A DNA stretch of 56,224 nt. Origin: Parcubacteria group bacterium M6-OD1-3. Lineage in GTDB: Bacteria > Patescibacteriota > Minisyncoccia > Moranbacterales > UBA9337. The notes under the pieces were generated by a model that had not been told where the DNA came from, searched no databases, and saw only the letters and a list, made by a program, of their open reading frames with translations. Positions 9,787 to 53,033 of the stretch are shown here, in pieces (position 1 is the first letter of the stretch; each line of letters starts with the position of its first letter). The translations under genes were made by a program, and so were the position numbers. Location: the NCBI GenBank assembly GCA_003056165.1, contig LSNR01000024.1:1-56224 (forward strand), in the 5' to 3' direction.

Positions 9787-10233
9787 ATGAAGATTAAAAT
9801 AGAGATAAATAATAGTAATGGTTGTAATTTTAGCAAAAAAAAGTTAAGATTAGCTATAGAAAAAACAATTCAACAAAGTTATTTACTTAATTCATCATTT
9901 AAGGATGTTATAGTTAGTGTTGGATTTCTCTCCCCCAATCAAATACAAAAAATAAATTGCAAATATCGAAGTAAAGATTATGTTACTGATATATTATCGT
10001 TTGCTAATTATGAAGGCAAGTCTGATATTTTAAAAAAAAACAATAGTAAAATTTTTTTGGGAGAGTTATTGATCTGTTGCGAAGATATAAAAAAATATTC
10101 CAAAAAAAATAACATTCTTTTCTCTAAAGAATTATATCGTGTGGTCAGTCATGGAACATTACATCTATTAGGGTTTTCCCATAGTAAAAATATGTTCAAA
10201 ATTCAAGATAAAATTGCTACGGAAATAATATAG
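9787..10233 (+). CDS. ybeY: rRNA maturation endoribonuclease YbeY
   Basis: Zinc motif HGTLHLLGFSH (HGxLHLxGxxH). Confidence 0.85.
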   Translation: MKIKIEINNSNGCNFSKKKLRLAIEKTIQQSYLLNSSFKDVIVSVGFLSPNQIQKINCKYRSKDYVTDILSFANYEGKSDILKKNNSKIFLGELLICCEDIKKYSKKNNILFSKELYRVVSHGTLHLLGFSHSKNMFKIQDKIATEII

Positions 10234-10707: not shown

Positions 10708-11967
10708 ATGACTAGTAATATTATCGCCAGTCTAGATGTTGGTTCTAATAGTGTCAGAATTGTCGTGGCTCAAAATGATAATGATGAATACTTAAAAATT
10801 ATCGGTGCAGAGGAAGTTGCTTCTGCTGGTGTTCGTCGTGGATCTGTGATTGATATTAAAGAAGCATCACGATCAATAGTAATGGCTTTAGAGAAGGTGG
10901 AAAAAAAGAACGATTTTAGAGTGCGAGATGTTGTTCTGGGCATAGGAGGAACGGATATAAAAATTCAAGAAGCAAAAGGTGTTATTGCTATTAGTAGAGC
11001 TAACGGTGAAGTTGGGGAGGATGATATCAAGCGGGTTTTGGAGACGGCTCAGAATGTTTCAATGCCTGTAAATAATGAGATAATTCATGCTATCCCTAAA
11101 GAATATAAACTTGATGATCAGACTAATATAAGAAATCCTTTAAATATGCATGGCATTCGTTTGGAGGCTGATGTTTTAATGATTGAAGACTCAACAAATC
11201 ATTTGGATAATTTAGTGAAAAGTGTTGAGCAAGCAAAAATAAATGTGGAAGGTTTGGTCGTAAATTCGTTAGCAGTATCATCAATTGTTCTTGACAAAAA
11301 TCAAAAAGAATTGGGTGTAGCTATTGTTGATATTGGTAGTGAGACAACATCCGTCGCTGTTTTTGAGGAAGGAGAATTGATAGATATTTCAGTTTTGCCT
11401 ATTGGTGCCGGACACATTACTAATGATATTGCAATTGGATTAAGAATTTCAGTAAGTTCTGCAGAGAGAATAAAGCTTGAATATGGAAGTGCTTTCCCTA
11501 AGCAAATAAATAAACGAGAAAATATTGATTTGTCTGAAATTGATTCGGAAGAAGATGGATTGGTTTCTCGCTATTATGTGGCGGAAATAATTGAAGCGAG
11601 AGTTACAGAAATCTTCGAGATGGTTAATGAGGAATTAAAAAAAATGGGTAGAGCTGGGTTATTGCCAGCTGGGATTGTTCTGGCTGGCGGTGGATCAGAG
11701 ATGCCTGATATAGTAGAGTTAGCTAAAAGCAAATTAGAACTACCAGCAAAAATTGGTTATCCACTGGAGATAAATGGCGTACTTAACGAGGTTGATTCGC
11801 CATCATTTTCAACAGTAGTAGGTCTATTGTCTTATTATCGCCAAAATAATTTATTAGACAGAAGAGATGAAAAAAAGTATTCAAAAATATTTTCATCAAT
11901 TGGTGGTATTGATATAACGAGTACTAAGACAAAAGTTAAAAAATGGGTAGATAGATTTTTACCATAA
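10708..11967 (+). CDS. ftsA: Cell division protein FtsA
   Basis: Actin-fold motifs LDVGSNSVRIV, VDIGSETTSVAVF and LAGGGSEMP. Directly upstream of ftsZ. Confidence 0.9.
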   Translation: MTSNIIASLDVGSNSVRIVVAQNDNDEYLKIIGAEEVASAGVRRGSVIDIKEASRSIVMALEKVEKKNDFRVRDVVLGIGGTDIKIQEAKGVIAISRANGEVGEDDIKRVLETAQNVSMPVNNEIIHAIPKEYKLDDQTNIRNPLNMHGIRLEADVLMIEDSTNHLDNLVKSVEQAKINVEGLVVNSLAVSSIVLDKNQKELGVAIVDIGSETTSVAVFEEGELIDISVLPIGAGHITNDIAIGLRISVSSAERIKLEYGSAFPKQINKRENIDLSEIDSEEDGLVSRYYVAEIIEARVTEIFEMVNEELKKMGRAGLLPAGIVLAGGGSEMPDIVELAKSKLELPAKIGYPLEINGVLNEVDSPSFSTVVGLLSYYRQNNLLDRRDEKKYSKIFSSIGGIDITSTKTKVKKWVDRFLP

Positions 11968-12125
11968 TAGTTCTAAAATAAATTTGACATTTACCATACT
12001 ATTGTGATAGATTTATATACCAAGGATATAGGTTTCGATTATAATAATAATAAACTTGTTTAGCTCATAAATATAGTAATTTGTAGAAATTAACACTAGA
12101 TGAGTTGAGACATAATTTAAAAAAT

Positions 12126-13346
12126 ATGGCAGAAATTAAACCGGATATAGAAACATCAGCAAAAATAAAAGTAGTTGGAGTAGGTGGCTCAGGGTGTAAT
12201 GCGGTTAGTAGAATGATTGAAGCAAATATTAAAGGAATTGAATTTGTGACAATAAACACTGATGCACAAGATTTGCATCATTCAAAAGCTAGTGAAAAAG
12301 TTCATATTGGAAAAAATCTTACTAAAGGATTGGGCGCAGGAATGAACCCCGAGGTTGGTCGTCAAGCAGCTGAGGAAAACAGGGATGAAATTCAGGAAGT
12401 ATTAAAAGGCGCAGACATGGTTTTTGTTACTTGCGGATTAGGTGGAGGAACTGGCTCTGGTGCTGCACCGATTGTGGCAGAAACTGCTAAAGAGTTAGGT
12501 GCGTTAACTATGGCAGTTGTTACAAAACCATTTAGTTTTGAGGGTGCGCAACGGCAAGCTATCGCCAATGAGGCTTTGGAAAATTTGAAAAAAAGAGTAG
12601 ATACCTTCATTACAATTCATAATGATAGATTATTATCTATAATAGATAAAAAAGCGACTTTGATAAATTCATTTAAAATCGTAGACGATGTTTTGCGACA
12701 GGGTGTTCAGGGCGTCTCAGATTTAATTACTCGACCGGGAATAGTTAATGTCGATTTTAATGATGTTAAAGCAGTAATGGCTGATGGAGGGAGTGCTCTG
12801 ATGGGAATTGGAATTGCCAGCGGAGAAAATCGTGCTACAGAAGCAGCTAAAGCAGCTATTAATAGTCCACTTCTTGAACTTTCGATTGATGGGGCTAAAG
12901 GAGTGTTATTTAATGTCTCCGGTGCAACTGATTTAGGAATGTTAGAAATAAATGAAGCTGCTAATGTTATTACGGAAAATATAGATCCTAATGCTAAAGT
13001 TATATTCGGAGCAGTGGCTGATGATAAAATTAGGAAAGGTGATATCCATATTACAGTAGTGGCAACAGGATTTGATGCTGATCACATTAGTGAATCACCA
13101 GCAGATATGCTATCTAGAGTTAAAAGTGAAAGTAACGAGGAAAATAATGAAGATAAAAAAGAAGACTTGTCAGAAGATGACCTTAATGAAAAAATAGTAT
13201 TCCCAAATAAAAAAATGGAGAGCACTATGATTATTGATGAAAAAGTTCAACCTAATTTAAATAAAACATCTTTTCAAAAAAGTGATGATGATGCAGATGA
13301 TGAATTAGAAATCCCAGCATTTATCAGAAGAAAGATGGGGAAGTAG
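12126..13346 (+). CDS. ftsZ: Cell division GTPase FtsZ (ATG at 12126 preferred over the TTG at 12105 in the ORF track)
   Basis: GVGGSGCNAV and tubulin signature GGGTGSGAAP, plus NTDAQ. Acidic linker and C-terminal peptide DDELEIPAFIRRK. Confidence 0.97.
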   Translation: MAEIKPDIETSAKIKVVGVGGSGCNAVSRMIEANIKGIEFVTINTDAQDLHHSKASEKVHIGKNLTKGLGAGMNPEVGRQAAEENRDEIQEVLKGADMVFVTCGLGGGTGSGAAPIVAETAKELGALTMAVVTKPFSFEGAQRQAIANEALENLKKRVDTFITIHNDRLLSIIDKKATLINSFKIVDDVLRQGVQGVSDLITRPGIVNVDFNDVKAVMADGGSALMGIGIASGENRATEAAKAAINSPLLELSIDGAKGVLFNVSGATDLGMLEINEAANVITENIDPNAKVIFGAVADDKIRKGDIHITVVATGFDADHISESPADMLSRVKSESNEENNEDKKEDLSEDDLNEKIVFPNKKMESTMIIDEKVQPNLNKTSFQKSDDDADDELEIPAFIRRKMGK

Positions 13347-13390
13347 AATTAAATTAATTGTCTTATAATAAATTAAAAAATTCTAATCGA

Positions 13391-13420
13391 AAACACTAGT
13401 AAATGCACTGGTGTTTTTTT
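13391..13420 (+). terminator. Putative intrinsic terminator after ftsZ
   Basis: aaacactag ... ctggtgttt hairpin (one G-U pair) followed by a T-run. Confidence 0.5.
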
Positions 13421-13460
13421 AATTGTGGATAAGTTTGGTTTTTGTTTAAAAATAAGGGGG

Positions 13461-13488
13461 TTGCACAGAATTTGACTTGTGGTATAAT
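13461..13488 (+). promoter_or_regulatory. Putative sigma70-type promoter for nrdR
   Basis: -35 TTGCAC (13461-13466), 16-nt spacer, extended -10 TGgTATAAT (13480-13488). Confidence 0.4.
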
Positions 13489-13498
13489 GTCTTTGTAG

Positions 13499-13515
13499 TA
13501 CACAATATGTAGTAG
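13499..13515 (+). promoter_or_regulatory. NrdR-box-like palindrome just downstream of the putative nrdR promoter
   Basis: acacaatatgtagtag matches about 13 of 16 positions of the NrdR box consensus acaCwAtATaTwGtgt, counted by eye. Confidence 0.35.
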
Positions 13516-13623
13516 AAATTTAACTTGCGTATAAGAACTATTGACATATTAAAAAATATTATTTTGGATTTTAGATAAGATTGAAGACCGAAAATAATAA
13601 TAATTAAGTGTAATAGATAAATT

Positions 13624-14076
13624 ATGTTGTGTCCCTTTTGCAATTATAGTGAAACTAAAGTTGTTGATTCTCGTGATACTAATGATGGGAAGGTTGTTCG
13701 ACGACGAAGGGAATGTGAAAAATGTCAGCGACGATTTAGTACTTATGAAGAATTAGAAATAATCCGATTGACTGTCATTAAAAAAAATCAAGTGCAGGAA
13801 GAATATGACCAAGATAAAATTATTGCCGGAATTGAACGAGCACTGGAGAAGAGACCTGTCAGTATCGAGAAGCGAAAAAAATTGTTGCAGGAAATTGAAT
13901 TTAATATTTTTACTCAAGGTAAATCTGAAATCACGACAAAAGAAATTGGAAAAATTATTTTAGAAAAATTATTGAAAGTAGATGAAGTAGCTTATGTGCG
14001 TTTTGCTAGCGTATATAAATCATTTGGGAGTATTAAAACATTTCGGAAAGAGCTAGATAAAATAAGTGATGAATAA
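13624..14076 (+). CDS. nrdR: Transcriptional repressor NrdR
   Basis: Zn ribbon CPFC...CEKC followed by an ATP-cone. Begins MLCPFCNYSETKVVDSRDT. Confidence 0.95.
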   Translation: MLCPFCNYSETKVVDSRDTNDGKVVRRRRECEKCQRRFSTYEELEIIRLTVIKKNQVQEEYDQDKIIAGIERALEKRPVSIEKRKKLLQEIEFNIFTQGKSEITTKEIGKIILEKLLKVDEVAYVRFASVYKSFGSIKTFRKELDKISDE

Positions 14077-41279: not shown

Positions 41280-41432
41280 TAAAAATTAAAAATAATATAG
41301 AAAAGAATTTTTTATGCTAGCATACTCTATGACATACCTTAAATTTAGTGAGATTGTCTATGATATGGTCAGCGTGGATAGCAACTTGATTATTTTTTAA
41401 AAAGCTGGTAAGTTAGGTGATGTAATACATAT

Positions 41433-41707
41433 AGGCTCTGCGGCTAGGGCTCACAGATCACAAGCTAACTGTGTACGTAGTCCACATCGTAATAAGCAAA
41501 TTACTTTGCTTATGTGCAAATCTCAGAGTCGGAGCATGTGCGAGTTTGCCGGAACGTCAGTGTAGGCAAGGCGAGTACGGCGAGGCGGGGTCGCGAGCAC
41601 GAAGCGTCAGCGGAGTGATTTGTGACCAATTTCCTTGGAATCCGAACCGTCGCTTTGGTATGATAATATAAAAGGCCCTGCAGCTAGGGCTCACAGATCA
41701 CAAGCTA
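41433..41707 (+). ncRNA. GC-rich candidate structured RNA (~205 nt) bounded by 35-nt direct repeats; class unknown
   Basis: The repeat aggc[tc]ctgc[ga]gctagggctcacagatcacaagcta occurs at 41433-41467 and 41673-41707. The interior is GC-rich against an AT-rich background and holds a perfect 9-bp hairpin ataagcaaa/tttgcttat. There is also a long-range pairing of ctcacagatcac with gtgatttgtgac. Confidence 0.3.
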
Positions 41708-41762
41708 CTGTTCGCCACTCTCGCGGAAAAACCAAAGAACAATACAATATTAGAGTTTATTA

Positions 41763-41834
41763 GGCCCTATCGTCTAGCGGCTAGGACGTATCCCTCTCAC
41801 GGATGAAACCGGGGTTCGATTCCCCGTAGGGTCA
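41763..41834 (+). tRNA. tRNA-Glu (anticodon CTC), no encoded CCA
   Basis: Manual cloverleaf: acceptor GGCCCTA/TAGGGTC, anticodon stem TATCC/GGATG with loop CTCTCAC, T-arm CGGGG TTCGATT CCCCG. It resembles E. coli tRNA-Glu. Confidence 0.85.
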
Positions 41835-42000
41835 CAAAAATAAGAAGAAAAAGCAACTAGCTTTGAGGCGCGCAAAAACTTTGAGAAATAAAACAAAACA
41901 AATATGCGCCGTCGGGGTCGAGAGTTCTTAATGAACACAAGCCAAAGGCGCGGTGTGAATTTAGAACTGGTGACCGATTCCCCACAGGGTCACAAATCGC

Positions 42001-42028
42001 AAAAACCACCCAGTGAAGGGTGGTTTTT
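42001..42028 (+). terminator. Intrinsic terminator
   Basis: aaaaaccaccc agtga agggtggttttt. Confidence 0.75.
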
Positions 42029-42122
42029 ATGGACTCGCTTTTATATTTACACACCTATATTACAGTTTAGCAGTATGTCAAAACACAAAAAGATGATATA
42101 ATACTTATAAAGAATATCGTAA

Positions 42123-42263
42123 GGTGATATTTATCGTGTAACAAAAATTGATCGAGTATATATCAGTAATCTTGAATCTGGTAAACAAAATTTTACAATC
42201 AGCACAATAGAAAAGATAGTCGGAGTGTTGGATGTGGGAGTTGATGATTTAGTAAAAAAATAA
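42123..42263 (+). pseudogene. 5'-truncated XRE-family HTH remnant (possible decayed controller protein) upstream of mod
   Basis: An open frame without a start encodes ...DRVYISNLESGKQNFTISTIEKIVGVLDVGVDDLVKK. This is the helix3-to-C-terminal half of a Cro/C1-type HTH. An in-frame stop lies at 42120. Confidence 0.45.
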
Positions 42264-42265
42264 TT

Positions 42266-44527
42266 ATGAACAATAAACTTAATCTAACAGACAACGAAAA
42301 ACGAGATGTTATAAAATATTTAGAATCTGGCAAGTCATTGCCAGAGAAATATCGTTTTTTGCTTTTTGATACTGACAAAGAGGTTGAGTTGCTTTGGAAT
42401 GGAAAAACTGACGAAGTGGAAAATACTGTTTTGCCATTTCAAACCATTGAGCATATTGATGAGCCAAGAAGTGAAGATAAAATCAATCGGCAAGAGTCTC
42501 TTTTTGATACTTCTGGCAGACAAATAAAAGGTTGGTCAAATAAACTTATTTGGGGCGATAATAAATTGATCTTATCAAGCCTCAAAAATGGACCTTTGCG
42601 AAAGCAGATTGAAGCCGAGGGCGGACTAAAATTGATTTACATTGATCCACCATTTGATGTTGGTGCTGATTTTTCTATGAATATAGAAATTGGCGAGGAA
42701 AGTTTTACCAAAAAGCCGTCCGTGATTGAAGAAATTGCCTATCGTGATACTTGGGGCAAGGGTGCGGATAGTTTTATCGCCATGATTTATGAACGACTAA
42801 AACTAATGCACGGACTTTTGGCAAATGATGGCAGTATTTATGTGCATTGTGATTGGCGAGTGAATAGTTATATGAGGTTAGTGTTGGATGAAGTCTTTGG
42901 TGTAGATAATTTTAGGAATGAGATAATTTGGAAAAGGAGTAATCCACATGGGCATGTAACAAATAAGTATGCCAACATACATGATACAATTTTATTTTAT
43001 TCAAAATCTAAAAACTACATCTTTAATACACAATATACACCAGCGGATGAAAATTACATAAAAACATTTTTCAAATTAGACGATGGTGATGGTAGAAAAT
43101 ACAGATTGGTAACACTAACAGCTCCTGGTCCAGGTGAAGCGAGATATTTTAATGAAAAAAAAATTACTCCTCCAAAAGGAAATCATTGGCGCTGGTCTCA
43201 AGATAGAATCAATGAAGCAATAAAAAATAATTTAATCGTTATTACAAAAAATAACTCTGTACACTATAAATATTATCTGGAAGATAACAAAGGTACTCCA
43301 GTCCAAAGTCTTTTTATTGATAAGGCGGTTGGAAATATTCAGTCTATTAGCAAGGAAAACTTGGATTATCCCACCCAAAAGCCAGAGAAGTTAATTGAAA
43401 GAATCATCAAAGCCTCATCAAACGAAGACGATCTTATCGCTGACTTTTTCTGTGGTTCGGGAACGACTTTGGCAGTAGCGGAGAAATTGGGGCGAAAATG
43501 GATTGGTTCTGACTTGGGAAAATTTTCAATTCATACTACACGCAAAAGAATGATTGGTGTACAAAGAGAAATGAAAAAGTCCGAAAAAGATTTTCGTGCT
43601 TTTGAGATTTTGAATATTGGGAAATATGAACGAGAGAGTTTTTTGAAAGTAAATGAAAATTTGCGAGAAGAAGAAAAAAGAAAGCAAAGGGAGAGGAAAG
43701 AAAAAGAATTTATTTCACTTATTCTTTCTGCTTACAAAGCCGAGCCAGTAGATTCTTTCAATATGTTTGTTGGTAAAAAAAGAGATAGACTTGTGGCGGT
43801 TGGCTCAATTGATACACCTGTTACCAATGATTTCTTAGAAAGTGTTATTGCTGAATGTAAAGAAAAAGGAGTTACCAAAGCGGATATTCTCGGATTTGAT
43901 TATGAAATGGGGCTTAATTTTGATGAAGCAAAAAAGCAGGGGTTGAATGTGCAGTTTAGAGTTATTCCACGAGAAGTATTTGATAAAAAAGCGGTAGAAA
44001 AAGGACAAGTAAGATTTTATGATGTTGCGTATATTGAAGTCAAGTCAATTATTCGCGGACGAGCAAATGCAAAAGAGATTGCGATTGAGCTGACTGATTT
44101 TTCTGTTTTTTATAATCAAGACAATACTGGCGAAGTAGAAGAAAAACTGCGCGCTGGCGGAAACAAGATTGTGATTGAAAACGGACAAGTGATTAAAATT
44201 TCTAAAGATAAGCAGACAAATGCTATTGAGCGAGAAGTTTTGACAAAGAAATGGACAGACTGGATTGATTATTGGTCAGTTGATTTTGACTATGAAAGTA
44301 AGAAAGAGATTGTGCGAGTAGTTGACAAAAATGGAGAGGAAAAAGAACAATGGACAGGAAACTATATTTTTGAAAATGAATGGCAGTCATTTAGAACCAA
44401 AAAAGATAGGATGCTTGAATTAACTTCTGCTTTTAAAGTTACAGGAAAAGGTAAAATGCAAGTAGCGATTAAAGTGATTGATATTTTTGGTAATGACACG
44501 ACCAAAGTTATTGAAATTAATGTTTAA
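42266..44527 (+). CDS. mod: Type III restriction-modification DNA methyltransferase (Mod, beta-class N6A/N4C) with a ~300 aa C-terminal extension
   Basis: Motif IV IYIDPPFDVG precedes motif I FFCGSGTTLAVAEKLGRKWIGSD. A variable TRD lies between them. Confidence 0.9.
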   Translation: MNNKLNLTDNEKRDVIKYLESGKSLPEKYRFLLFDTDKEVELLWNGKTDEVENTVLPFQTIEHIDEPRSEDKINRQESLFDTSGRQIKGWSNKLIWGDNKLILSSLKNGPLRKQIEAEGGLKLIYIDPPFDVGADFSMNIEIGEESFTKKPSVIEEIAYRDTWGKGADSFIAMIYERLKLMHGLLANDGSIYVHCDWRVNSYMRLVLDEVFGVDNFRNEIIWKRSNPHGHVTNKYANIHDTILFYSKSKNYIFNTQYTPADENYIKTFFKLDDGDGRKYRLVTLTAPGPGEARYFNEKKITPPKGNHWRWSQDRINEAIKNNLIVITKNNSVHYKYYLEDNKGTPVQSLFIDKAVGNIQSISKENLDYPTQKPEKLIERIIKASSNEDDLIADFFCGSGTTLAVAEKLGRKWIGSDLGKFSIHTTRKRMIGVQREMKKSEKDFRAFEILNIGKYERESFLKVNENLREEEKRKQRERKEKEFISLILSAYKAEPVDSFNMFVGKKRDRLVAVGSIDTPVTNDFLESVIAECKEKGVTKADILGFDYEMGLNFDEAKKQGLNVQFRVIPREVFDKKAVEKGQVRFYDVAYIEVKSIIRGRANAKEIAIELTDFSVFYNQDNTGEVEEKLRAGGNKIVIENGQVIKISKDKQTNAIEREVLTKKWTDWIDYWSVDFDYESKKEIVRVVDKNGEEKEQWTGNYIFENEWQSFRTKKDRMLELTSAFKVTGKGKMQVAIKVIDIFGNDTTKVIEINV

Positions 44528-44530
44528 ATT

Positions 44531-45967
44531 ATGAATAATCAAGAATTACAAAAACTATTACAAAATCTTGTTTCATTGAAAAGTGAAACAGAAGTTGTAG
44601 AATTTAAGGAGAATAACTTTAATAAAATTGAGATTGGTAAAAGAATTTCTGCTTTGGCAAATTCTGCAAATTTATTAGAGGAGAAAAAAGCATATATTGT
44701 ATTTGGAATAAATAATAATCATCAATCCGTGGGGACAAAATTTAAGCCAAAAACAGAGAAAGTTGGTGATGAATTATTGGAATTTTGGTTGAATAAAATG
44801 CTAACACCAAAAACGAATTTTTGTATATACGAATTTGAGTTTGAAAACAAAAATATTGTTTTATTTGAAATATTTCCTGCTATTACTCAACCAGTAAAAT
44901 TTCAAAATATTGCGTACATTCGAATAAATTCTACAACCCCAAAATTGCAAGATTATCCTGAGAAAGAGAGAAAGATTTGGCAAAATATTGAAAAAAATAG
45001 TTTTGAAAAAGGTATTGCAAAAGAAAATTTAACTGTATCACAAGTTTTAGATTTACTAGATTATGCCAAATACTTTTCACTTACTAAGCAGGAGTTGCCA
45101 ACAGAAACAATTAAATTTGTAGACAAGATGGCACAACACGGACTAGTAAATAAAAATTTTGATAATGACTTTGATATTACCAATCTCGGGGCAATTTTAT
45201 TCGCTAAAGACTTAAAACAATTTCCTACAGTAAAGAGAAAAGCGGTAAGAGTTATTTTATATAAAGGAAATTCAAAAGCGGAAAGAGTAAAGGAACAGGA
45301 AGGAAATCTTGGCTATGCAATAGCTTTTGAAAGTTTACTTGAATTTGTAAATGATAAACTTCCATCAAATGAAGAAATTACTAAAACATTAAGAAAAGAG
45401 GTTCGGATGTATCCAGAAAAAGCTATTCGTGAATTTGTGGCGAATGCTTTAATTCACCAAGACTTTACTATTTCTGGTGCTGGTCCAACAGTTGAAATTT
45501 TTGATAATCGAGTTGAAATTACAAATACAGGAGAGCCGTTAATCCCTACAGAAAGATTTATTGACCATCCGCCACGTTCGAGAAATGAAGATTTGGCTTC
45601 TTTTATGAGGCAAATTAAAGTATGTGAAGAGGGTGGCACGGGCGTAGACAGAGCTTTAATAAATATCGCTCTATATCAGTTACCTGCTCCAACATTTGAA
45701 CGTTATGATAACTTTACAAAAGTAACATTATTTGCCTACAAAGATCTAAAAGACATGACAATGGATGATAAAGTGAGAGCATGTTATCAGCATTGTGTTT
45801 TGAAATATTTAGAAGGTGGTAGAATGACAAATACCAGTTTGCGTGAACGACTTGGAATTAACAAGGGGAACTATCCTGCTGCTTCTAAAATTATTTCAGA
45901 AAGTATAAAAAGAAATCAGATAAAGGAATCAGAAAAAATTAAGGAATATATTCCGATATGGGCATGA
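44531..45967 (+). CDS. AlbA_2 (Schlafen-like divergent AAA) plus HATPase_c_4 plus C-terminal wHTH protein
   Basis: SETEVVEFKEN is the AlbA_2 signature and REFVANALIHQDF is the HATPase_c_4 signature. C-terminal MTNTSLRERLGI is wHTH-like. A 3-nt gap follows the mod stop. Confidence 0.8.
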   Translation: MNNQELQKLLQNLVSLKSETEVVEFKENNFNKIEIGKRISALANSANLLEEKKAYIVFGINNNHQSVGTKFKPKTEKVGDELLEFWLNKMLTPKTNFCIYEFEFENKNIVLFEIFPAITQPVKFQNIAYIRINSTTPKLQDYPEKERKIWQNIEKNSFEKGIAKENLTVSQVLDLLDYAKYFSLTKQELPTETIKFVDKMAQHGLVNKNFDNDFDITNLGAILFAKDLKQFPTVKRKAVRVILYKGNSKAERVKEQEGNLGYAIAFESLLEFVNDKLPSNEEITKTLRKEVRMYPEKAIREFVANALIHQDFTISGAGPTVEIFDNRVEITNTGEPLIPTERFIDHPPRSRNEDLASFMRQIKVCEEGGTGVDRALINIALYQLPAPTFERYDNFTKVTLFAYKDLKDMTMDDKVRACYQHCVLKYLEGGRMTNTSLRERLGINKGNYPAASKIISESIKRNQIKESEKIKEYIPIWA

Positions 45968-46241
45968 ATCATGTAGTGGGCATGTAGTAAAATGCCATTA
46001 GTTGACAACAAAACCCTTTATTTAAGCCAAAAAATCATGTAGTGGGGATGTAATAATTAGTAGACAAAAGTACTTTTAGAAGAAAAATATGTATATTATC
46101 AATAAAAATAAGGATGTTAATAAATAGAAAGCTTTGTTAAAATAGATTAAAGTTAATAAGAAGACATTAAAACTAGTAAGAAAATCATAAAAAAAGCTTG
46201 TATTTTCAACATTTTAATAAACTACATAATAATAAGACAAC

Positions 46242-48917
46242 ATGGCATTACACAAAAATTTTCCAAAAGATAAATTCCAAATACTTGATCCTGCGATTAG
46301 GTGGTTTCCTGCCGAGGAAGATTTGAGAAAAGAGGGGTATGAGAAACTCCTACCTCCTTTTGTGCCTGAACTCCGCGAGCAAGTAGCAAAATGGCGCAAA
46401 AATAATTATGAGGGTGCAAGTGAAACATCAAAAGCATTGTTGAATTGGTGGTTTAACGAACCGCATACTATTTTTGGAAGTGACGGAACAAGTGTTACTT
46501 TTGAGTATTATTATGCACAAAGAGAGGCAGTGGAAACTATTATCTGGATTTATGATGTTGATAAAGCTACGAGTAAATACGATTTAATCAAATTTGATAA
46601 ATTAGGCAGAGTGAGTCCAAACATGTTTACGGAAGATTGGTTGCGTTTTGTTATAAAAATGGCAACAGGGAGTGGAAAAACAAAAGTAATGAGTTTACTT
46701 TTGGCTTGGTCTTACTTTCACAAACTCTACGAAAAAGATTCTGAACTTTCAAAAAATTTCTTACTTATTACACCAAACATTATTGTTTTGGATAGAATAA
46801 AATCTGATTTTGAAGGATTGAAAATATTTTATGAAGATCCTATTTTACCAGACAATGGATATGAGGGGCAAAATTGGGAAGATGATTTTCAAATTAAATT
46901 GCATTTGCAAGATGATGTTGGCACAATTTCAAAAACTGGAAATATTTTCCTGACAAATATTCATAGAGTTTATGAGGGAGATATAAATGAAGCAAGTTTT
47001 GAAGATGAAGATACTTCTGATTATTTTATGGGGAGCAAGGTTGTTGGTAAAACTAACGATTCAAAAGTTGATTTAGGAGAAATAGTGCGTGATGTTGATG
47101 AGTTAATGATTATCAATGACGAAGCACATCATATCCATGATCCAAAAATGGCATGGTTTAAATCAATTGAAGATATACATAATAAATTACTGCAAAAAGG
47201 TAAAAAGCTGGCTCTACAAATTGATGTTACCGCTACACCAAAAAATAATCGTGGAGAGATTTTTGTGCAAACTATTTCTGATTATCCTTTGGTTGAGGCA
47301 ATACACCAAGGAGTTGTAAAAAATCCAGTTGTACCAGACGAAGCCAGTAGGGGGAAATTACAAGAAAAGCAAAGCTCGCTCTTTGCTGAAAAATACGAAG
47401 ATTTTATCAGGCTTGGCGTTGAAGAATGGGAAAAGACTCACAAAGAACTTGAGCCAACTGGCAAAAAGTCAATTCTTTTCATAATGACAGACGATACTAA
47501 AAACTGTGATGATGTTGCTGAGTTTTTAGAAAATAGTTATCCGCAATTGAAAGGAGCAGTTTTGACTATCCATACAAATAAAAGCGGAGAGATTTCAGAA
47601 ACGGTAAAGGGTAAAAAAGAAAAGGAATTACAAGAGTTGCGTAAAAAAGCCAATGACATCGATAGTCCAGAAAGTCCGTATAAAGTGATTGTCTCTGTGC
47701 TTATGTTGAAAGAGGGTTGGGATGTAAAAAATGTAACAACAATTGTTGGTTTGCGACCTTACAGTTCAGATTCTAAAGTGTTGCCAGAACAAACATTAGG
47801 GCGAGGGCTTCGCCGAATGTTTTTTGGGCAAGATGTTGAAGAATATGTGAGTGTTATCGGTACGCCTGCTTTTATGGAGTTTGTAGAATCTATTAAAGCG
47901 GAAGGTGTTGAGTTAGAAAAAAGAAAAATGGATCGTTCTGGCTCTCCTATTACCCCAACGGTTATTGAAGTTGATAACCAAAATGTTAAAAAAGACATTG
48001 AAAATCTGGACATTGAATTGCCAATTTTAACCCCAAGAATACAAAGAGAATACAAAAATCTTGATTTACTGAATGTTGCTGAATTTAAGAATGATAAAAT
48101 TGAAATAAAACAATTTTCAGAAGAAGAGAAGAAGGAAATTGTTTTTAGAAATGTTGTTGATGAAAAAGAACATCACACAACAATTTTAAATAGTTCTATT
48201 GAGCCAAATTACCAAAGTGTTATTGGGTTCTTCGTGCAGAGGATAATGAAAGAATTACGCCTTTTTGGTTGTTACGATATACTTTTTGGAAAAGTTAAAA
48301 AATTTATAACAGACGATTTATTTAAAGAGAATATTGATCTTAACGATTCAAATATTTTGAGAAATTTGTCAGAATTAGAAGCAGTAAAAACTATCGCAGA
48401 AACATTCAAAAAAGAAATAAACGATTTGACTGTGCAAGATGTTGGCGATACTGAAATCAAAAATTATATTAAAGTAAGTAGTGCTAGACCTTTTGTTGTT
48501 ACTGATAAAAAATATTTGTTGCCAAAAAAGAGTGTATTTAACAAAATTGTTGGTGATAGTGATTTCGAATTGGAATTTGCTGATTTCTTGGAAACTGCTG
48601 ACGATGTGCTTTCTTTTGCAAAAAACTATTTTGAGATTCATTTCAAAATTGATTATAAAAATGCGAGCGGAGCAATTTCAAGTTATTATCCTGATTTTTT
48701 CGTTAAGACAGATAACAAAACAATTTATATTATAGAAACAAAAGGGCGAGAAGATTTGGATGATATAGAAAAAATAAAGAGATTGAAGCAATGGTGCAAA
48801 GATGCGACTGAAAGACAAAAAAAGATTGAGTACAAAATGCTTTATGTAAAACAAGAAAAATGGGATAAATACACACCAAAAATCTTTGCGGAATTAGTGG
48901 CTAATTTTAGTGAATAA
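46242..48917 (+). CDS. res: Type III restriction enzyme Res subunit (SF2 DEAH helicase plus PD-(D/E)xK nuclease)
   Basis: Walker A MATGSGKTK, DEAH (INDEAHH), QTLGRGLRR (motif VI), and C-terminal YYPDF...IIETKG nuclease motif. Confidence 0.9.
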   Translation: MALHKNFPKDKFQILDPAIRWFPAEEDLRKEGYEKLLPPFVPELREQVAKWRKNNYEGASETSKALLNWWFNEPHTIFGSDGTSVTFEYYYAQREAVETIIWIYDVDKATSKYDLIKFDKLGRVSPNMFTEDWLRFVIKMATGSGKTKVMSLLLAWSYFHKLYEKDSELSKNFLLITPNIIVLDRIKSDFEGLKIFYEDPILPDNGYEGQNWEDDFQIKLHLQDDVGTISKTGNIFLTNIHRVYEGDINEASFEDEDTSDYFMGSKVVGKTNDSKVDLGEIVRDVDELMIINDEAHHIHDPKMAWFKSIEDIHNKLLQKGKKLALQIDVTATPKNNRGEIFVQTISDYPLVEAIHQGVVKNPVVPDEASRGKLQEKQSSLFAEKYEDFIRLGVEEWEKTHKELEPTGKKSILFIMTDDTKNCDDVAEFLENSYPQLKGAVLTIHTNKSGEISETVKGKKEKELQELRKKANDIDSPESPYKVIVSVLMLKEGWDVKNVTTIVGLRPYSSDSKVLPEQTLGRGLRRMFFGQDVEEYVSVIGTPAFMEFVESIKAEGVELEKRKMDRSGSPITPTVIEVDNQNVKKDIENLDIELPILTPRIQREYKNLDLLNVAEFKNDKIEIKQFSEEEKKEIVFRNVVDEKEHHTTILNSSIEPNYQSVIGFFVQRIMKELRLFGCYDILFGKVKKFITDDLFKENIDLNDSNILRNLSELEAVKTIAETFKKEINDLTVQDVGDTEIKNYIKVSSARPFVVTDKKYLLPKKSVFNKIVGDSDFELEFADFLETADDVLSFAKNYFEIHFKIDYKNASGAISSYYPDFFVKTDNKTIYIIETKGREDLDDIEKIKRLKQWCKDATERQKKIEYKMLYVKQEKWDKYTPKIFAELVANFSE

Positions 48918-48919
48918 TT

Positions 48920-50575
48920 ATGAAAATAAAATCACTCAAAATTTCAAATATACTTAGCTTTAAATATATAGAAAGTATAGAAGAAGCTGAAATAATCAAC
49001 TTCGATAGAAGTTTTAATATTTTAATAGGTCAAAATGGCGCTGGCAAATCAACCGTACTAGAGGTTATTAATTTTGTATTTCGCAGAGTTTTATTTGTTC
49101 CTTATGATAGGAATCGAGATTTATATAGTCAGAGAAAAACTATCGAGCCTAACCAGAAAAAAGAAATTCTAAAAAAGATAAATAATACTCAATCATATAA
49201 AGATTTTAGGCTAGAAAGAAATTATGATTTTGAGGACAAGACACAGAAAGTTAGAATTGTAGTAGAGTTAGATGATATTGATAAGGCAAATATAAAATTT
49301 CTACAGGATAATAAAGTAAAGTTAGCACCGATTGTTGGAATTTATTCAGCAGAGCAGATGTTTGCCGATGGAGAGTATCAAAGTGAATATATTATTGATA
49401 TTGAATTAAGTAGCACAGATAAAACTTATACAGTTAATACCGAACAAGATATTGGTTTTACATATCTCACAGCATATAATCTCTACAAAGAAGTGATAGA
49501 AATACACAATGAGGAAAAGCCGAAGGAGCAGATAGACAATCTTGCAGAATCTTTTGCTCTTATTGGAAGTTATAGAAATTATAGTGCTTATTCTCCGCAC
49601 GTATCACTTGGTGGTGGAAATACTGCTGATAAACAAATACAACAAATACGCATGGGAGAATTCTCAAAAAGTACCAACGCCACAGAAGGAGGAGAGCCTT
49701 CCATTTTTGGACTTGTAAGGTTAAGAATGGCAAAAGAATGCTTTGATTTAATTTTTGATAAGAATGATTTAAGGGAGTGCGAAAAAGCAGCAAACAACTT
49801 ACCTTTTGTTAAGGCTATAAATAAAAAAATTCAAATAGTTAATCTAAAAACAGAGGTAAAATTAGTAGATCAGTCTAGTTGGAATTTCAGCTTTTCTTTT
49901 GTAGATATAAAAAGAAGTAGGGAAATATCTGACATAAATTCCTTGAGTGCTGGACAAAAATCTATAATTCATTTGGTTTTTGAGGCTTACGGGAGAGGAA
50001 GTTTGCTCGGGGGTCTTGTAATTATCGATGAGCCAGAAATACATTTACACTATCAATTTCAAAATGAATACCTTAGAGTTGTTGAAAAATTAAATCAAGA
50101 ACAAGGTTGTCAATATATTCTAGTTACACATTCAGAACCTTTAGTGAGCTCAAAAACCATCAGTAGTGTTATTCGTCTTTCATTAGATGAAAATAATTAT
50201 ACAAAAATAAATCAACCAAATATTACTACGGATCAAAAATGGTTAGTTAAGATACTCGATAATAAGCGTTCTACCCATGCTTTTTTTGGTAGTAAGGTTT
50301 TGTTGGTAGAAGGAGAAACTGATCGATATTTTTTCCGTGCTGTCTTAAATGAGGTTGAAGATAAACTAAAAAAAGGTTTGTCTCAAGATATTACTATTTT
50401 GGACATTGATGGAAACACTAATCCTAGTGAGTGGCGTAAGCTGTTTGAATCTTTTGGGTTGAAAACCTTTTTTATCACAGACTTAGATTCTGCCTTTAAA
50501 TACTACCCAGAAGATGAAAGGTATAAGCTCAAGACTCCTGTTTTAGTAAATAGTTTTTTAAAAAAAACATCCTGA
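48920..50575 (+). CDS. OLD-family nuclease, ABC-ATPase plus start of TOPRIM; interrupted by a frameshift at an A8 run
   Basis: Walker A GQNGAGKST, signature LSAGQKS, Walker B VIIDEPEIHLH, H-loop VTHS. TOPRIM Glu LLVEGETDR and DxD FITDLDS. A 2-nt gap follows the res stop. Confidence 0.85.
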   Translation: MKIKSLKISNILSFKYIESIEEAEIINFDRSFNILIGQNGAGKSTVLEVINFVFRRVLFVPYDRNRDLYSQRKTIEPNQKKEILKKINNTQSYKDFRLERNYDFEDKTQKVRIVVELDDIDKANIKFLQDNKVKLAPIVGIYSAEQMFADGEYQSEYIIDIELSSTDKTYTVNTEQDIGFTYLTAYNLYKEVIEIHNEEKPKEQIDNLAESFALIGSYRNYSAYSPHVSLGGGNTADKQIQQIRMGEFSKSTNATEGGEPSIFGLVRLRMAKECFDLIFDKNDLRECEKAANNLPFVKAINKKIQIVNLKTEVKLVDQSSWNFSFSFVDIKRSREISDINSLSAGQKSIIHLVFEAYGRGSLLGGLVIIDEPEIHLHYQFQNEYLRVVEKLNQEQGCQYILVTHSEPLVSSKTISSVIRLSLDENNYTKINQPNITTDQKWLVKILDNKRSTHAFFGSKVLLVEGETDRYFFRAVLNEVEDKLKKGLSQDITILDIDGNTNPSEWRKLFESFGLKTFFITDLDSAFKYYPEDERYKLKTPVLVNSFLKKTS

Positions 50576-50576
50576 C

Positions 50577-50798
50577 GTGTATTTGAAAATTGAAGCTGAT
50601 TATGAAAACGGAGTCTTTATTTTTAAAAACGGAGATCTTGAGATATATCTAGATATACCCAAAGGACAAAAAGGAATCGCTAGTGTGATAAACTTTTGTA
50701 AAAATAATTTGCATGTTTATTGGGCAGATGACACTAATAATAGAGTTGCTGAAATTAAAATGATTTTATCTAAAGTAATAGAGAGAAGCATAGATTAA
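50577..50798 (+). CDS. C-terminal fragment of the OLD-family nuclease (+1 frame relative to 48920-50575)
   Basis: Removing one A from 50560-50567 joins ...NSFLKK to HPDVYLKIEADYENGVFIFKNGDLEIYL... This looks like a typical OLD C-terminal region. Confidence 0.7.
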   Translation: MYLKIEADYENGVFIFKNGDLEIYLDIPKGQKGIASVINFCKNNLHVYWADDTNNRVAEIKMILSKVIERSID

Positions 50799-50881: not shown

Positions 50882-50993
50882 CCATGATACGCTAAGGCTA
50901 CATGGTAAACCATGATACGCTAAGGCTACATGGTAAACCATGATATGCTAGAAGCTACATGGTAAACCATGATATGCTAAAGTTACACAGCAT
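50882..50993 (+). repeat. Tandem array of about four 28-bp units
   Basis: ccatgatacgctaaggctacatggtaaa occurs twice exactly. Two diverging units follow. Each unit holds a ccatg...catgg inverted repeat. Confidence 0.9.
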
Positions 50994-51218
50994 GTGGGTA
51001 GGCAGGCAGTGCAATTGAATTTGTTTTGGAGGGATTAATTAGTAACAGTTTTTGGGATGGTATAGTAAGACCCTAAATATTATCAAATATTATTAAATAT
51101 TATTAAATTTTCTTTACATTAAGGGGGATTGATGATAGATTAAAGCTGTAAAAGAAAATAATTTGTTTTAATGTTGGCTTGTCCGTTGGTGGTCAATAAT
51201 GTTTTAGTTTAGTTTATT

Positions 51219-53033
51219 ATGTCAGATAAAAATGTTGAAGAAAAAATTGATTCGTCAGTTGACGAAAAGAAAAAGGTTAAAATTCCCAATCCGGTAATGG
51301 TTAAAAAATTTGCAGAGATTTTGGAATTGTCGGTTTCCGATGTGATTACAGAATTGATGAAAAATGGAATTATGGCAACCATTAATGAAGAGGTTGATTT
51401 TGAAACAGCCAGTATTATAGCGGAGGATCTTGGTTTTGATGTCGAAGAAGATTTGGAAATTCATGAAGGAGAAGCCTTGACATTGGAAAGACTTTTGGAT
51501 ATTTGTAGAAAAGAACAAGCTTTAGATGAAAAATTACCGGAGCGTGCTCCAGTAGTAACAATTCTTGGTCATGTTGATCATGGAAAAACGACTTTGCTTG
51601 ACGCAATTCGTAAAGGTAATGTTGCGTCGCATGAAGCGGGAGGAATTACTCAGCACATGACTGCTTATCAAGTTAAAAAAAGAGGAAAAACGATTACTTT
51701 TATTGATACGCCGGGACATGAAGCTTTTTCAGCAATGCGTGAGCGAGGAGTAAGTATTGCCGATGTGGCTATTTTAGTTGTGGCGGCGGATGATGGAGTG
51801 CGACCACAAACAAAAGAAGTTATTAGATATTTGAAAGAGAAAAAAATTCCGACTATTGTAGCAATAAACAAAATTGATAAGCCGGAAGCTAATTTACAAC
51901 GAGTGAAACAGGAATTATCAGAACACGATATTGTTATTGAGGAATGGGGCGGTGAAGTTGTCTCTAATGAAATCAGTGCTAAAAATAACATTGGTATCGA
52001 CGATTTGTTGGATAGTGTTTTGTTAGTGTCGGAAGTTTTAGAATTAAAAGCCAATGATAAAAGCGATGGTTTGGGCGTTGTTTTGGAATCGCACTTGGAT
52101 CCCAATAAAGGTCCGGTTTCAACTGTTTTGATAAAAACTGGAATGTTAAAAGTTGGACATGATGTTTTGGTTGGAAATACCTTTGGTCGCATTAAGAGAA
52201 TGGAAAATTATGCTGGAGAACAAGTTGATTCTGCTGGTCCGTCCAGCCCAGTGGTTATTATGGGAATTCAAAAAACTCCGGAGGTCAATGATATTATCCA
52301 GGTTGCTAAAAAAGAAACTATTGCCAAAATAAAATCAAAAGGCAGTACGGGAGTAATTAGCGGAATGAATAAAATTAAAGGTAAGAAAGATTTGTATAAA
52401 AATATTGATGAAGGAAAAATTAAAAAACTTGATATAATTATGAAAGCGGATGTTCCTGGATCATTGGAAGCAATCGACCAAATTCTTTCAACAATTAAAT
52501 CTAAGGAAGTTGCCTGGGAATATATAAATACCGGCGTTGGAAATATTACTGAATCCGATGTTAAATTAGCCGAGAGTTCGAATGCTATAGTATATGGTTT
52601 TAATGTGAATGCTACGACTGTTGCCAAGAGAATGGCGGAAAAAGTTGAGGTAGAAATTAAATCGTTTGATGTTATTTATGAATTAGTTGAGGATGTAAAA
52701 AACAGAATGGCGGATTTATTGCCACCGGAAATTATTCGTACTGATTTGGGGCGTTTAAAAGTTTTGGCAATTTTTAAAAATGGAAAAACAGATATGATTG
52801 TCGGTGGACGAGTTATCGAAGGTACAGCAGTTAATAAATCTTTAGTGGAAATAAAGCGAGATAAGGAAATTATCGGTAAAGGAGAAATTTCCAACTTGCA
52901 ACAAAATAAAAAGCCGGCGGAAAAAGTTAAGTCTGGAAATGAATGTGGAATTACTTTCCAAGGCAAAACAAAAATTGAAGAAGGTGATATCTTAATTTTT
53001 TACAAAGAAGAGGAAAAAAGAAAGAAATTATAG
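51219..53033 (+). CDS. infB: Translation initiation factor IF-2 (short N-terminal form)
   Basis: G-domain motifs GHVDHGKTT, DTPGH and NKID. C-terminal beta-barrel domains. Confidence 0.95.
   Translation: MSDKNVEEKIDSSVDEKKKVKIPNPVMVKKFAEILELSVSDVITELMKNGIMATINEEVDFETASIIAEDLGFDVEEDLEIHEGEALTLERLLDICRKEQALDEKLPERAPVVTILGHVDHGKTTLLDAIRKGNVASHEAGGITQHMTAYQVKKRGKTITFIDTPGHEAFSAMRERGVSIADVAILVVAADDGVRPQTKEVIRYLKEKKIPTIVAINKIDKPEANLQRVKQELSEHDIVIEEWGGEVVSNEISAKNNIGIDDLLDSVLLVSEVLELKANDKSDGLGVVLESHLDPNKGPVSTVLIKTGMLKVGHDVLVGNTFGRIKRMENYAGEQVDSAGPSSPVVIMGIQKTPEVNDIIQVAKKETIAKIKSKGSTGVISGMNKIKGKKDLYKNIDEGKIKKLDIIMKADVPGSLEAIDQILSTIKSKEVAWEYINTGVGNITESDVKLAESSNAIVYGFNVNATTVAKRMAEKVEVEIKSFDVIYELVEDVKNRMADLLPPEIIRTDLGRLKVLAIFKNGKTDMIVGGRVIEGTAVNKSLVEIKRDKEIIGKGEISNLQQNKKPAEKVKSGNECGITFQGKTKIEEGDILIFYKEEEKRKKL

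Follow-up and report, generated by a model that had tools for sequence, protein, structure and literature searches.

Does a tight block of four defence-type genes form one machine, or has it been brought together from separate parts? This question is raised by contig LSNR01000024.1 of Parcubacteria group bacterium M6-OD1-3, which was analysed over a stretch of 56,224 nt (the window). Four co-oriented open reading frames (ORFs) lie on its plus strand: the modification gene mod, a gene with SLFN_AlbA_2 and HATPase_c_4 domains (the Schlafen or AlbA_2 gene), the restriction gene res, and an OLD-family gene, with gaps of 3, 274, and 2 nt along the block. An initial annotation, made from the sequence alone, had correctly described the common orientation and the 2-3 nt junctions, had misplaced the ends of the block (42123 and 50798) and the length of the middle gap, and had suggested a single functional module in which OLD and the Res helicase are partnered as in Gabija and the AlbA_2 protein serves as sensor or regulator. 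Our analysis points, with a probability of roughly 0.55, to an R-M (restriction-modification) operon of Type III from a Patescibacteria-type genome that carries two independently acquired accessory defence cassettes, its parts being operonic neighbours, possibly layered defences, and not an obligate complex. The locus is of interest mainly because it gives a lead, open to testing, on the wiring of R-M-linked Schlafens.

Recurrence of the block and the variable slot between mod and res

Loci were fetched around the relatives of each protein, all four window proteins were mapped onto them by tblastn, and ORFs were called naively, the longest being picked greedily under translation table 11. Across the 207 loci, tblastn with all four proteins revealed no second mod-SLFN-res-OLD arrangement. 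The res sample comprised 80 loci of 63-93% identity, 70 of which show both gene ends (of mod and res) and 74 of which have downstream sequence; the OLD sample comprised 19 genome and 80 metagenome loci of 39-82% identity. This OLD family followed res in 0/74 loci, and 0/99 OLD loci contained this res, the AlbA_2 gene, or a recurrent helicase partner. Given this lack of recurrence, the block is neither a conserved four-gene system nor a Gabija-like pairing, and the two ideas put forward by the initial annotation were abandoned; neither a UvrD-like gene nor any other conserved OLD partner was found in the 99 loci. The junction of res and OLD has sharp homology breakpoints, the res-type homology ending at about 48921 and the OLD-type homology beginning at about 48914. 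The composite block is a one-off juxtaposition of elements of known kinds.

The order of mod upstream of res was constant (70/70 related loci with enough sequence), and the distance between the two genes ranged from 2 nt to 2.4 kb. Among the 70 loci, mod abutted res in 21, short gaps were present in 3, and inserts were present in 46. In total, 74 cargo ORFs were called in these inserts; 72 had the plus-strand orientation, and the set fell into 42 sequence clusters. The cargo was defence-like in character: the Pfam census gave NYN (9), SLFN_AlbA_2 with HATPase_c_4 (9, the window included), KTSC (6), AAA_15/AAA_21 (4), DUF3800 (2), and single cases of an OLD-like TOPRIM, a Clp protease, a trypsin-like peptidase, WYL, and HEPN_Apea; PADLOC models recognised AbiLi/AriA (4) and Old (3). 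Since mod abuts res in 21 loci and 42 alternative clusters occupy the same place in 46 others, the R-M pair needs neither add-on. The closest R-M relative of the window operon (L048; Res 93% and Mod 80% identical) carries an AlbA_2 gene that is just 24% identical to that of the window, indicating that cargo is exchanged between near-identical operons. The first genes after res were heterogeneous as well, comprising defence-like genes (PDDEXK_1/DUF2779, AAA_13/15/21, GmrSD_N, KAP) and housekeeping genes (Mur ligase, Pth, L19, FtsK).

A variable cargo slot in a Type III family appears to be new, no description of a hypervariable Type III mod-res cargo slot having been found in a limited literature search. 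The slot offers a cheap discovery handle: with 42 clusters in 46 loci, many of them unannotated, it is a source of candidate defence genes in the Patescibacteria, whose defence systems have been little studied so far. The commonest cargo was a pair formed by a KTSC gene (~70 aa) followed by an NYN gene (~260 aa), present in L052, L057, L082, L089, L096, and L100, and this pair has the look of a toxin/antitoxin or defence module of two genes; AlbA_2-containing R-M loci are also flanked by NYN genes (L210, L213). At L100, a second copy of the initial 37 codons of res is present, so that the NYN/KTSC cargo has one copy on each side (10001-10111 and 11198-13879), which suggests that cargo can enter by a recombination able to duplicate the 5' end of res.

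The domain calls of all four proteins were confirmed by Pfam, PADLOC, and NCBIfam scans, and at the level of sequence the mod-res pair is a Type III system. In Mod, motif IV (DPPF127) is N-terminal to motif I (FCGSG395), both being intact. Res retains GSGKT143, DEAH293, and PD-x14-ETK817, and its C-terminus matched RE_endonuc (4e-6) or a TnsA-like nuclease in Pfam; the NCBIfam family model BPTD_3080 scored 290 bits, under its 800-bit threshold. More than 576 relatives of Res were found, up to 93% identical and mostly from Patescibacteria, and the nearest relatives of all four genes are from metagenome-assembled genomes of Patescibacteria or the candidate phyla radiation (CPR), the taxonomic labels of which may be wrong. 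At several loci (L061, L080, L107, L109, L117, L118, L125) the matches to Mod were split into residues 1-254 and ~363-753 with an unalignable middle, which indicates that otherwise similar mod genes have swapped the target-recognition region.

The operon has also lost a gene. The segment 42123-42262, which the initial annotation had included in the block, is a truncated XRE-type helix-turn-helix (HTH) gene, mod itself beginning at 42266. A stop precedes the 45-residue fragment and no ORF was called there. In L097 and L053, a full-length XRE-type homologue is separated from mod by just 5-8 nt, so the window operon has lost its upstream HTH gene; a degenerate copy is present in L048. The ancestral order may have been HTH-mod-[slot]-res, the window copy lacking that regulator. 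On the other side of the slot, part of the AT-rich leader of res is shared with the res locus of L063, which has a different cargo, and the leader therefore belongs to the R-M operon itself rather than having come with the cassette. The homology between 46055-46130 and the L063 leader places the cassette at approximately 44531-46057.

The Schlafen gene and its 3' repeat element

The AlbA_2 gene belongs to the known pSlfn-HisKinase-HTH (Schlatpase-HTH) class, and its family has many members, no fewer than 7991 proteins matching at E ≤ 1e-10. In the AlphaFold2 (AF2) model, the SLFN domain (residues 1-155) is confident, with a predicted local distance difference test score (pLDDT) of 83-93 over residues 1-150, as is the C-terminal winged HTH (wHTH) domain (411-478), in which three helices and a two-strand wing were placed at 411-475 (pLDDT 72-93) and the recognition helix at residues 449-460. 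Foldseek matches included 3lmm, the N-domains of SLFN13/14/12/5/11, and the catalytic and ATP-binding (CA) domains of His-kinases. E19 and E24, which probably correspond to the N-terminal catalytic carboxylates E17/D22 of CbCash, are invariant in the AlbA_2 family, and the GHKL core is conserved.

A repeat element of two sites begins with the stop codon's final base, and a -10-like CCYTTTATTTWAGCC(A)n block, also conserved, stands ahead of the second site. The composite motif occurred twice in 56 kb, namely at the two sites, compared with 0.01 matches expected. Among the loci of homologues, a 7-8-mer is located 5-9 nt past the stop (sometimes 15-40 nt) and is often doubled at 11-nt spacing, and a second site, usually a pair at the same spacing, follows ~65 nt (up to ~110 nt) beyond the first. 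A first count gave 20/34 loci with the element. Under a strict criterion, which required at least three exact copies in the 200 nt next to the stop, with a spacing of 10-12 nt in one pair and of 40-140 nt in another, it was present in 66/108 distinct loci vs. 1/1039 random windows of the same loci (p = 5e-77). Cargos of the AlbA_2 type that are 22-25% identical to the window protein and occupy other mod-res slots showed the same layout with different words.

The repeated word varies by lineage and tracks the first residues (N-cap) of the predicted wHTH recognition helix. Helices beginning with NYP pair with ATGTA[AG] (16/16), those with NYS pair with ATGTG (12/12), those with NSA or NAA pair with ATTTG (13/15), and those with NKS pair with [ACT]GTTGA (4/4). 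These classes interleave on a neighbour-joining tree of the SLFN-GHKL part alone, at least 26 switches being needed, so the match between helix and word is not a single inherited accident; joint exchange of the HTH and its sites as one module would give the same pattern of covariation. A conserved, helix-matched DNA element that keeps a fixed place ahead of a restriction gene provides a concrete, testable hypothesis on the role of the HTH and on the wiring of these effectors to R-M, and the presence of this repeat between the stop codon and the next gene indirectly favours the earlier suggestion that the protein is a sensor or regulator.

In cassettes that are 70% identical, both sites and the CCYTTTATTTWAGCC(A)n block before site 2 are conserved, and nothing is conserved past site 2; in other phyla, a TGATAATCA-like, -10-like word is found at the corresponding place. 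A sigma-70 promoter scan of the spacer returned 5 matches vs. 2.6 ± 1.8 expected, which is not above chance. Two other explanations of the element were discarded: a small RNA, since the ~40 nt that separate the sites lack conservation in cassettes as close as 70% identity and no Rfam match was obtained, and recombination (att) sites flanking the cassette, since both sites lie 3' of the gene and none upstream. Variants of the layout were also observed. At L084 (979-1029), a copy of the site-2 region lies ~85 nt upstream of res in a locus that ends at the contig edge, and either the AlbA_2 gene lies past that edge or the element has survived as a remnant. After the AlbA_2-like genes of L048 and L064, a ATTCTCTTTGCA-type word also occurs once inverted between two direct copies, so the layout of the sites differs somewhat between subfamilies.

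Position of the Schlafen gene among R-M genes

The embedding of AlbA_2 genes in R-M operons is real and more than loose co-location in defence islands. Homologues that are 70-73% identical to the window protein are located between the R and M genes of an R-M system of a different type; those found between an HsdR-like gene and an N6_Mtase-Methylase_S fusion (P0075, on at least 24 contigs, and P0057) are 71-73% identical. In a sample of 80 further, diverse AlbA_2-family loci from many phyla, HsdS was the most frequent co-oriented upstream neighbour (Methylase_S, 14/48; N6_Mtase, 3/48), and a restriction subunit the most frequent co-oriented downstream neighbour (ResIII, 14/42; HSDR_N, 10/42). 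The tendency was significant both for R-type genes downstream (p = 5e-4) and for M/S-type genes upstream (p = 2e-4). The gene is also found in the order hsdS-SLFN-hsdR, for example in the culturable Methylobacter marinus A45 (L261), Pandoraea morbifera (L280), Anabaena sp. 4-3 (L227), and Labilibacter marinus (L278), and the window, with mod, SLFN, and res, obeys the same M/S-SLFN-R polarity.

The 3' element, its covariation with the HTH, and the M/S-SLFN-R polarity receive no mention in the searched passages of PMC13056530, PMC13462974, and bioRxiv 10.64898/2026.05.29.728809. Within the limits of this literature search, an HTH-matched 3' element with an M/S-to-SLFN-to-R polarity appears to be new.

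The OLD-family gene

The best PADLOC match of the OLD protein was Old (2e-27), ahead of GajA (3e-25); OLDs of the GajA type have a helical insert in TOPRIM and so exceed Class 1 proteins in size. Its motifs are intact, including the Walker A motif (37-44), LSAGQ342, and DEP370 of the ATPase and E464/D468, DID495, and DLD521 of the TOPRIM domain. Matches in the PDB were to AriA, with a similarity confined to the ATPase domain, and to the T. scotoductus OLD 6p74, which was weak (E = 2.5e-8 over 135 residues).

As assembled, the gene stops at 50575, and the end at 50798 given by the initial annotation is reached solely through a frameshift. A homopolymer of eight A residues carries one extra A, and the remaining 73 codons continue out of frame. 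The tail encoded there is 32-67% identical to its counterparts and follows directly after the body in 18/19 genome loci (tblastn); in the three loci checked (L001, L002, and L018) the tail is in frame with the body, and most of the 19 genome homologues are a single ORF of ~615-645 aa. The frameshift may be a sequencing or assembly error, an inactivating mutation, or a slippage switch, so that the OLD protein is either inactive, switched off, or mis-assembled. A look-up of the exact AlbA_2 protein sequence of the window, meant to locate another assembly for checking the frameshift, gave no record. Disruption was observed in other homologues too: an insertion of ~1.4 kb (11419-12918) with a 328-aa ORF interrupts L015, and L141 and L207 have frameshift-like splits, so decay of OLD is not unique to the window.

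No recurrent cluster of neighbours was identified in the 99 OLD loci besides R-M genes of varying type and position, which were adjacent to OLD or within a few kb of it in ~5-6/19 genome loci and ~20/80 metagenome loci. For example, an hsdR gene is directly upstream in L002 and L012, and hsdR, hsdM, and hsdS are upstream in L015. In L018, the arrangement is hsdM-OLD-x-hsdS with overlapping stop and start codons, the OLD start overlapping the hsdM stop by 4 nt. The hsdM-OLD-hsdS order occurs in the metagenome loci L130, L142, L143, L146, and L154-156, and the order OLD-hsdR in L148. An N6_N4-type methylase gene is directly upstream in L135, L136, and L138-140, L137 falling within the L135-140 range of loci in which OLD is nested among R-M genes. 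It was also observed that in L018/L130 (8556-14003) the window's OLD family sits between Type I hsdM and hsdS, and that a second AAA_15 ATPase gene lies upstream of hsdR in L012. The R-M nesting of a single-gene OLD family appears to be new, and it bears on the classification of OLDs, since 'single-gene' members can be nested in R-M operons.

Proposed explanation and alternatives

We propose that the first cassette consists of the gene for a putative Schlafen RNase-GHKL ATPase-wHTH protein and ~90 nt of 3' DNA, and that it occupies a recombination-prone slot between mod and res. Its 3' DNA, which travels with the gene, supplies two sites of 11-nt-phased direct repeats matching the protein's own HTH; the HTH would bind both sites, between which a -10-like box lies close ahead of the next gene, and the Schlafen protein would thus sit at the entry to res, probably tuning its transcription. 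Prokaryotic Schlafen domains are tRNA-cleaving antiviral effectors according to PMC13056530 and PMC13462974, and by analogy the SLFN domain may be a tRNA-cleaving abortive-infection effector. The GHKL domain may likewise control oligomerisation, by analogy with the 'Schlatpase' supradomain, in which, according to bioRxiv 10.64898/2026.05.29.728809, GHKL drives ATP-dependent tetramerisation and SLFN cleaves tRNA. On this view, the cassette would back up restriction as a second defensive line in case of its failure or inhibition. The second cassette is a single-gene, Class-1-like OLD ATPase-TOPRIM nuclease joined head-to-tail at the end of res; if intact, it could provide a third, independent abortive layer, and as assembled it is without its conserved C-terminus.

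Several points weigh against this explanation. The binding of the HTH to the sites is suggested by position and covariation, and 42/108 loci fail the strict repeat criterion. The promoter matches are at chance level, the consensus used is that of sigma-70, and the promoters of this phylum are uncharacterised; the claim was therefore kept to a position-conserved -10-like box. The GHKL domain was poorly modelled (pLDDT < 50). Consensus D62, the probable third catalytic carboxylate (its equivalence to SLFN13 D248 being derived from spacing alone), is Asn in the window copy and in 5/40 close homologues, which makes the nuclease activity of the window copy uncertain; judged from its sequence, this Schlafen may have little nuclease activity or lack it altogether. 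A real complex made by co-translation would also be in keeping with the tight junctions of 2-3 nt. Finally, neighbours were identified by naive ORF calling, tblastn, and aggregate Pfam counts, and the R-M adjacency figures stand without a matched baseline for defence genes beside R-M genes.

The alternative that survives best, which we regard as possible though on the unlikely side, is that three independent systems (a Type III R-M, a stand-alone Schlafen, and a stand-alone OLD) came to lie side by side via defence hotspots, the tight spacing reflecting the mechanics of insertion. It agrees with the occurrence of each component without the others in most genomes, with the mix of defence and housekeeping genes downstream of res, and with the location of the block next to a tRNA with an att-like scar. 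Against it stand the directionality of the Schlafen gene in unrelated R-M types, the HTH-matched sites directly ahead of the downstream gene, the recurrence of OLD-family ATPases within the mod-res slot of the same R-M family, and the recurrence of OLD in Type I operons, where stop and start codons overlap.

A bolder extension of the two-cassette explanation, which we consider speculative and unlikely, is that SLFN-GHKL-HTH and its 3' element form a mobile 'guard-regulator' cassette that inserts between the M/S and R genes of various R-M types. Bound to its operator, the protein would be inactive and would set the expression of the restriction gene; displaced from it, GHKL oligomerisation and tRNA cleavage would follow, and the mod-res gap would be a general docking site for backup effectors. 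If this were true, displacement could be caused, e.g., by anti-restriction proteins that mimic DNA or when the locus is damaged, and DNA would act as the 'antitoxin' of the cassette.

Alternatively, the AlbA_2 protein could be mainly a transcription regulator of the restriction gene, an analogue of C proteins that delays or caps res, with little or no nuclease role in the window copy. Such a role would fit the HTH-matched sites that bracket the -10-like box before the downstream gene, the position of methylase genes upstream and restriction genes downstream, the Asn at consensus D62, and the truncation of the operon's former upstream HTH gene, after which a regulator may be needed. We consider it improbable: conservation throughout the family extends to E19, E24, and the GHKL core, genes other than restriction genes are also found after this cassette (e.g., HEPN_AbiU2, which adjoins the close homologue P0016, 71-73% identical, and the M-S fusion), the prokaryotic Schlafens characterised so far are tRNases (PMC13056530 and PMC13462974), and 21/70 operons function without any slot gene.

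A single four-gene machine, in which OLD partners the SF2 (superfamily 2) helicase of Res as GajA does GajB and the AlbA_2 protein is the sensor, would suit the common strand, the 2-3 nt junctions, the absence of predicted terminators between the genes, and the family-level resemblance of OLD to GajA, but it is largely refuted by the lack of recurrence in the res and OLD loci; the cargo-free operons, the frameshift in OLD, and res/OLD homology breakpoints that are sharp to within ~5 nt, as fits a recent juxtaposition, also weigh against it, and we regard it as highly improbable compared with the two-cassette explanation.

Features and surroundings of the block

The G+C content is ~31%, with no compositional break at the block. 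The features are listed in Table 1. The tRNA-Glu noted upstream by the initial annotation was confirmed, as was its statement on integrases, no integrase-like ORF being found from the tRNA to infB, which follows the block at 51219.

Table 1. Coordinates of the features of the defence block and its flanks in the window
Feature	Position	Strand	Evidence and remarks
tRNA-Glu(CTC)	41763..41835	+	ARAGORN; Rfam tRNA, 57 bits; upstream landmark, 430 nt before mod
Degenerate copy of the tRNA-Glu 3' half	41965..41996	+	Direct repeat vs. 41807-41838, 81% over 32 nt
XRE-type HTH gene remnant, 5'-truncated	42123..42262	+	Translation; C-terminal 45 codons, no start codon
mod, Type III beta-class N6/N4 DNA methyltransferase	42266..44527	+	753 aa; Pfam N6_N4_Mtase 1e-44; PADLOC MTase_III 2e-118
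Schlafen(AlbA_2)-GHKL ATPase-wHTH gene	44531..45967	+	478 aa; Pfam SLFN_AlbA_2 1.9e-17, HATPase_c_4 4.3e-18; slot cargo
3' element, site 1	45967..45990	+	AATCATGTAGTGGGCATGTAGTAA; two ATGTAGT units 11 nt apart, from the last base of the stop codon
3' element, site 2	46033..46056	+	AATCATGTAGTGGGGATGTAATAA; 66 nt after site 1; preceded by the conserved -10-like CCYTTTATTTWAGCC(A)n block
AT-rich res leader	46057..46241	+	blastn: 46055-46130 matches L063 1699-1775, directly upstream of L063 res
res, SF2 DEAH helicase with C-terminal PD-(D/E)xK nuclease	46242..48917	+	891 aa; ResIII 1e-18; PADLOC REase_III 2e-21
OLD-family ABC ATPase-TOPRIM gene	48920..50575	+	551 aa as assembled; AAA_15 4e-23, AAA_21, OLD-like_TOPRIM 1e-14
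A8 homopolymer with +1 insertion	50560..50567	+	DNA alignment with L001, L002, L018: one extra A; stop 50573-50575
OLD C-terminal 73 codons, out of frame	50577..50798	+	tblastn; conserved in homologues
28-nt tandem repeat, 3.8 copies	50882..50987	.	Tandem Repeats Finder (TRF) score 168, 93% matches; block-infB spacer, right-hand edge

The degenerate copy of the tRNA-Glu 3' half lies 158 nt downstream of the tRNA and is followed by a hairpin with a T-run at ~42006-42030; it may be an att-type scar of an earlier integration, and it precedes the R-M block rather than following it. Upstream of the tRNA, a stretch richer in G+C than its surroundings (41425-41715; ~43% vs. 31%) has a copy of a 35-nt direct repeat at each edge (41433 and 41673; 94% identical), and for this stretch no Rfam family match was obtained and the folding z-score was unremarkable (-1.1). 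Additionally, a 10-nt tandem repeat of 3.5 copies (51074-51108) is situated past the OLD tail, in the spacer that leads to infB.

Comparison with known systems

Type III enzymes cleave DNA in an ATP-dependent manner and require two inversely oriented unmethylated sites, and Mod hemimethylates the DNA. The window operon resembles the EcoP15I/EcoP1I type in the order of mod and res, in the beta-class Mod, and in the SF2 Walker A, DEAH, and PD-(D/E)xK motifs of Res, and differs from it in that a cargo gene interrupts it and an OLD gene has been added at its end.

The Schlafen protein shares SLFN_AlbA_2, GHKL, a short C-terminal HTH, and the linkage to R-M with the pSlfn-HisKinase-HTH proteins, also described as Schlatpase or as R-M-associated cluster 7. 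According to PMC13056530, pSlfn-HisKinase-HTH proteins account for 19.2% of the prokaryotic Schlafens; at about a fifth, they are the second most common bacterial class, the commonest being one without the HTH. According to PMC13462974, SLFN-ATPase-DNA-binding proteins are tightly tied to R-M and their trigger is unknown, and in the 2026 literature the trigger and regulation of SLFN-GHKL-HTH are an open question. Unlike the characterised prokaryotic Schlafens, the HTH-bearing, R-M-embedded class has no characterised member, and the window copy has the D62 to Asn change.

The OLD gene is similar to Class 1 OLD (P2 Old, T. scotoductus OLD) in that the ABC ATPase and TOPRIM are in one polypeptide with no conserved partner. 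The OLD protein of P2 cleaves tRNA and is switched on when it senses DNA of aberrant structure (bioRxiv 10.64898/2026.07.10.737580), and Class 1 OLD genes have been described as not proximal to other defence genes (PMC10568477). In contrast, the family in the window is often R-M-nested, and the window copy is frameshifted and weakly similar to 6p74. It differs from Gabija (GajA and GajB) in adjoining an SF2 enzyme, Res, and infB, with no UvrD/PcrA/Rep-like helicase of superfamily 1 (SF1) beside it. Unlike retron-associated OLD (Class 3), it has no reverse transcriptase ORF or non-coding RNA beside it, and the Retron Eco8 effector model scored 62 bits against a cut-off of 250.

The C proteins of Type II systems are HTH dimers of ~80 aa that act on palindromic C-boxes upstream of their own gene. 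The Schlafen protein resembles them as an HTH protein within an R-M operon, with operator-like sites ahead of the restriction gene; it is a 478-aa, multi-domain protein, and its sites are direct repeats downstream of its own gene, so the analogy would be a functional one.

Type I loci with accessory genes include EcoprrI, with PrrC, and the Campylobacter loci with rlo genes and AbiL/RloA-RloB. PARIS is an anti-anti-restriction guard (PMC9122126, PMC11464382), from which the window gene differs in having the ATPase and TOPRIM in one gene and not in separate AriA and AriB (DUF4435 TOPRIM). Compared with the PrrC, rlo, and PARIS loci, the host operon in the window is of Type III, its cargo is far more diverse, and its Schlafen cargo brings its own cis element. 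As in those loci, AbiLi-, AriA-, and Old-like ATPases are found among the cargo of the mod-res slot, and accessory nuclease or ATPase genes lie within an R-M operon, where they would plausibly serve as a backup when restriction is inhibited.

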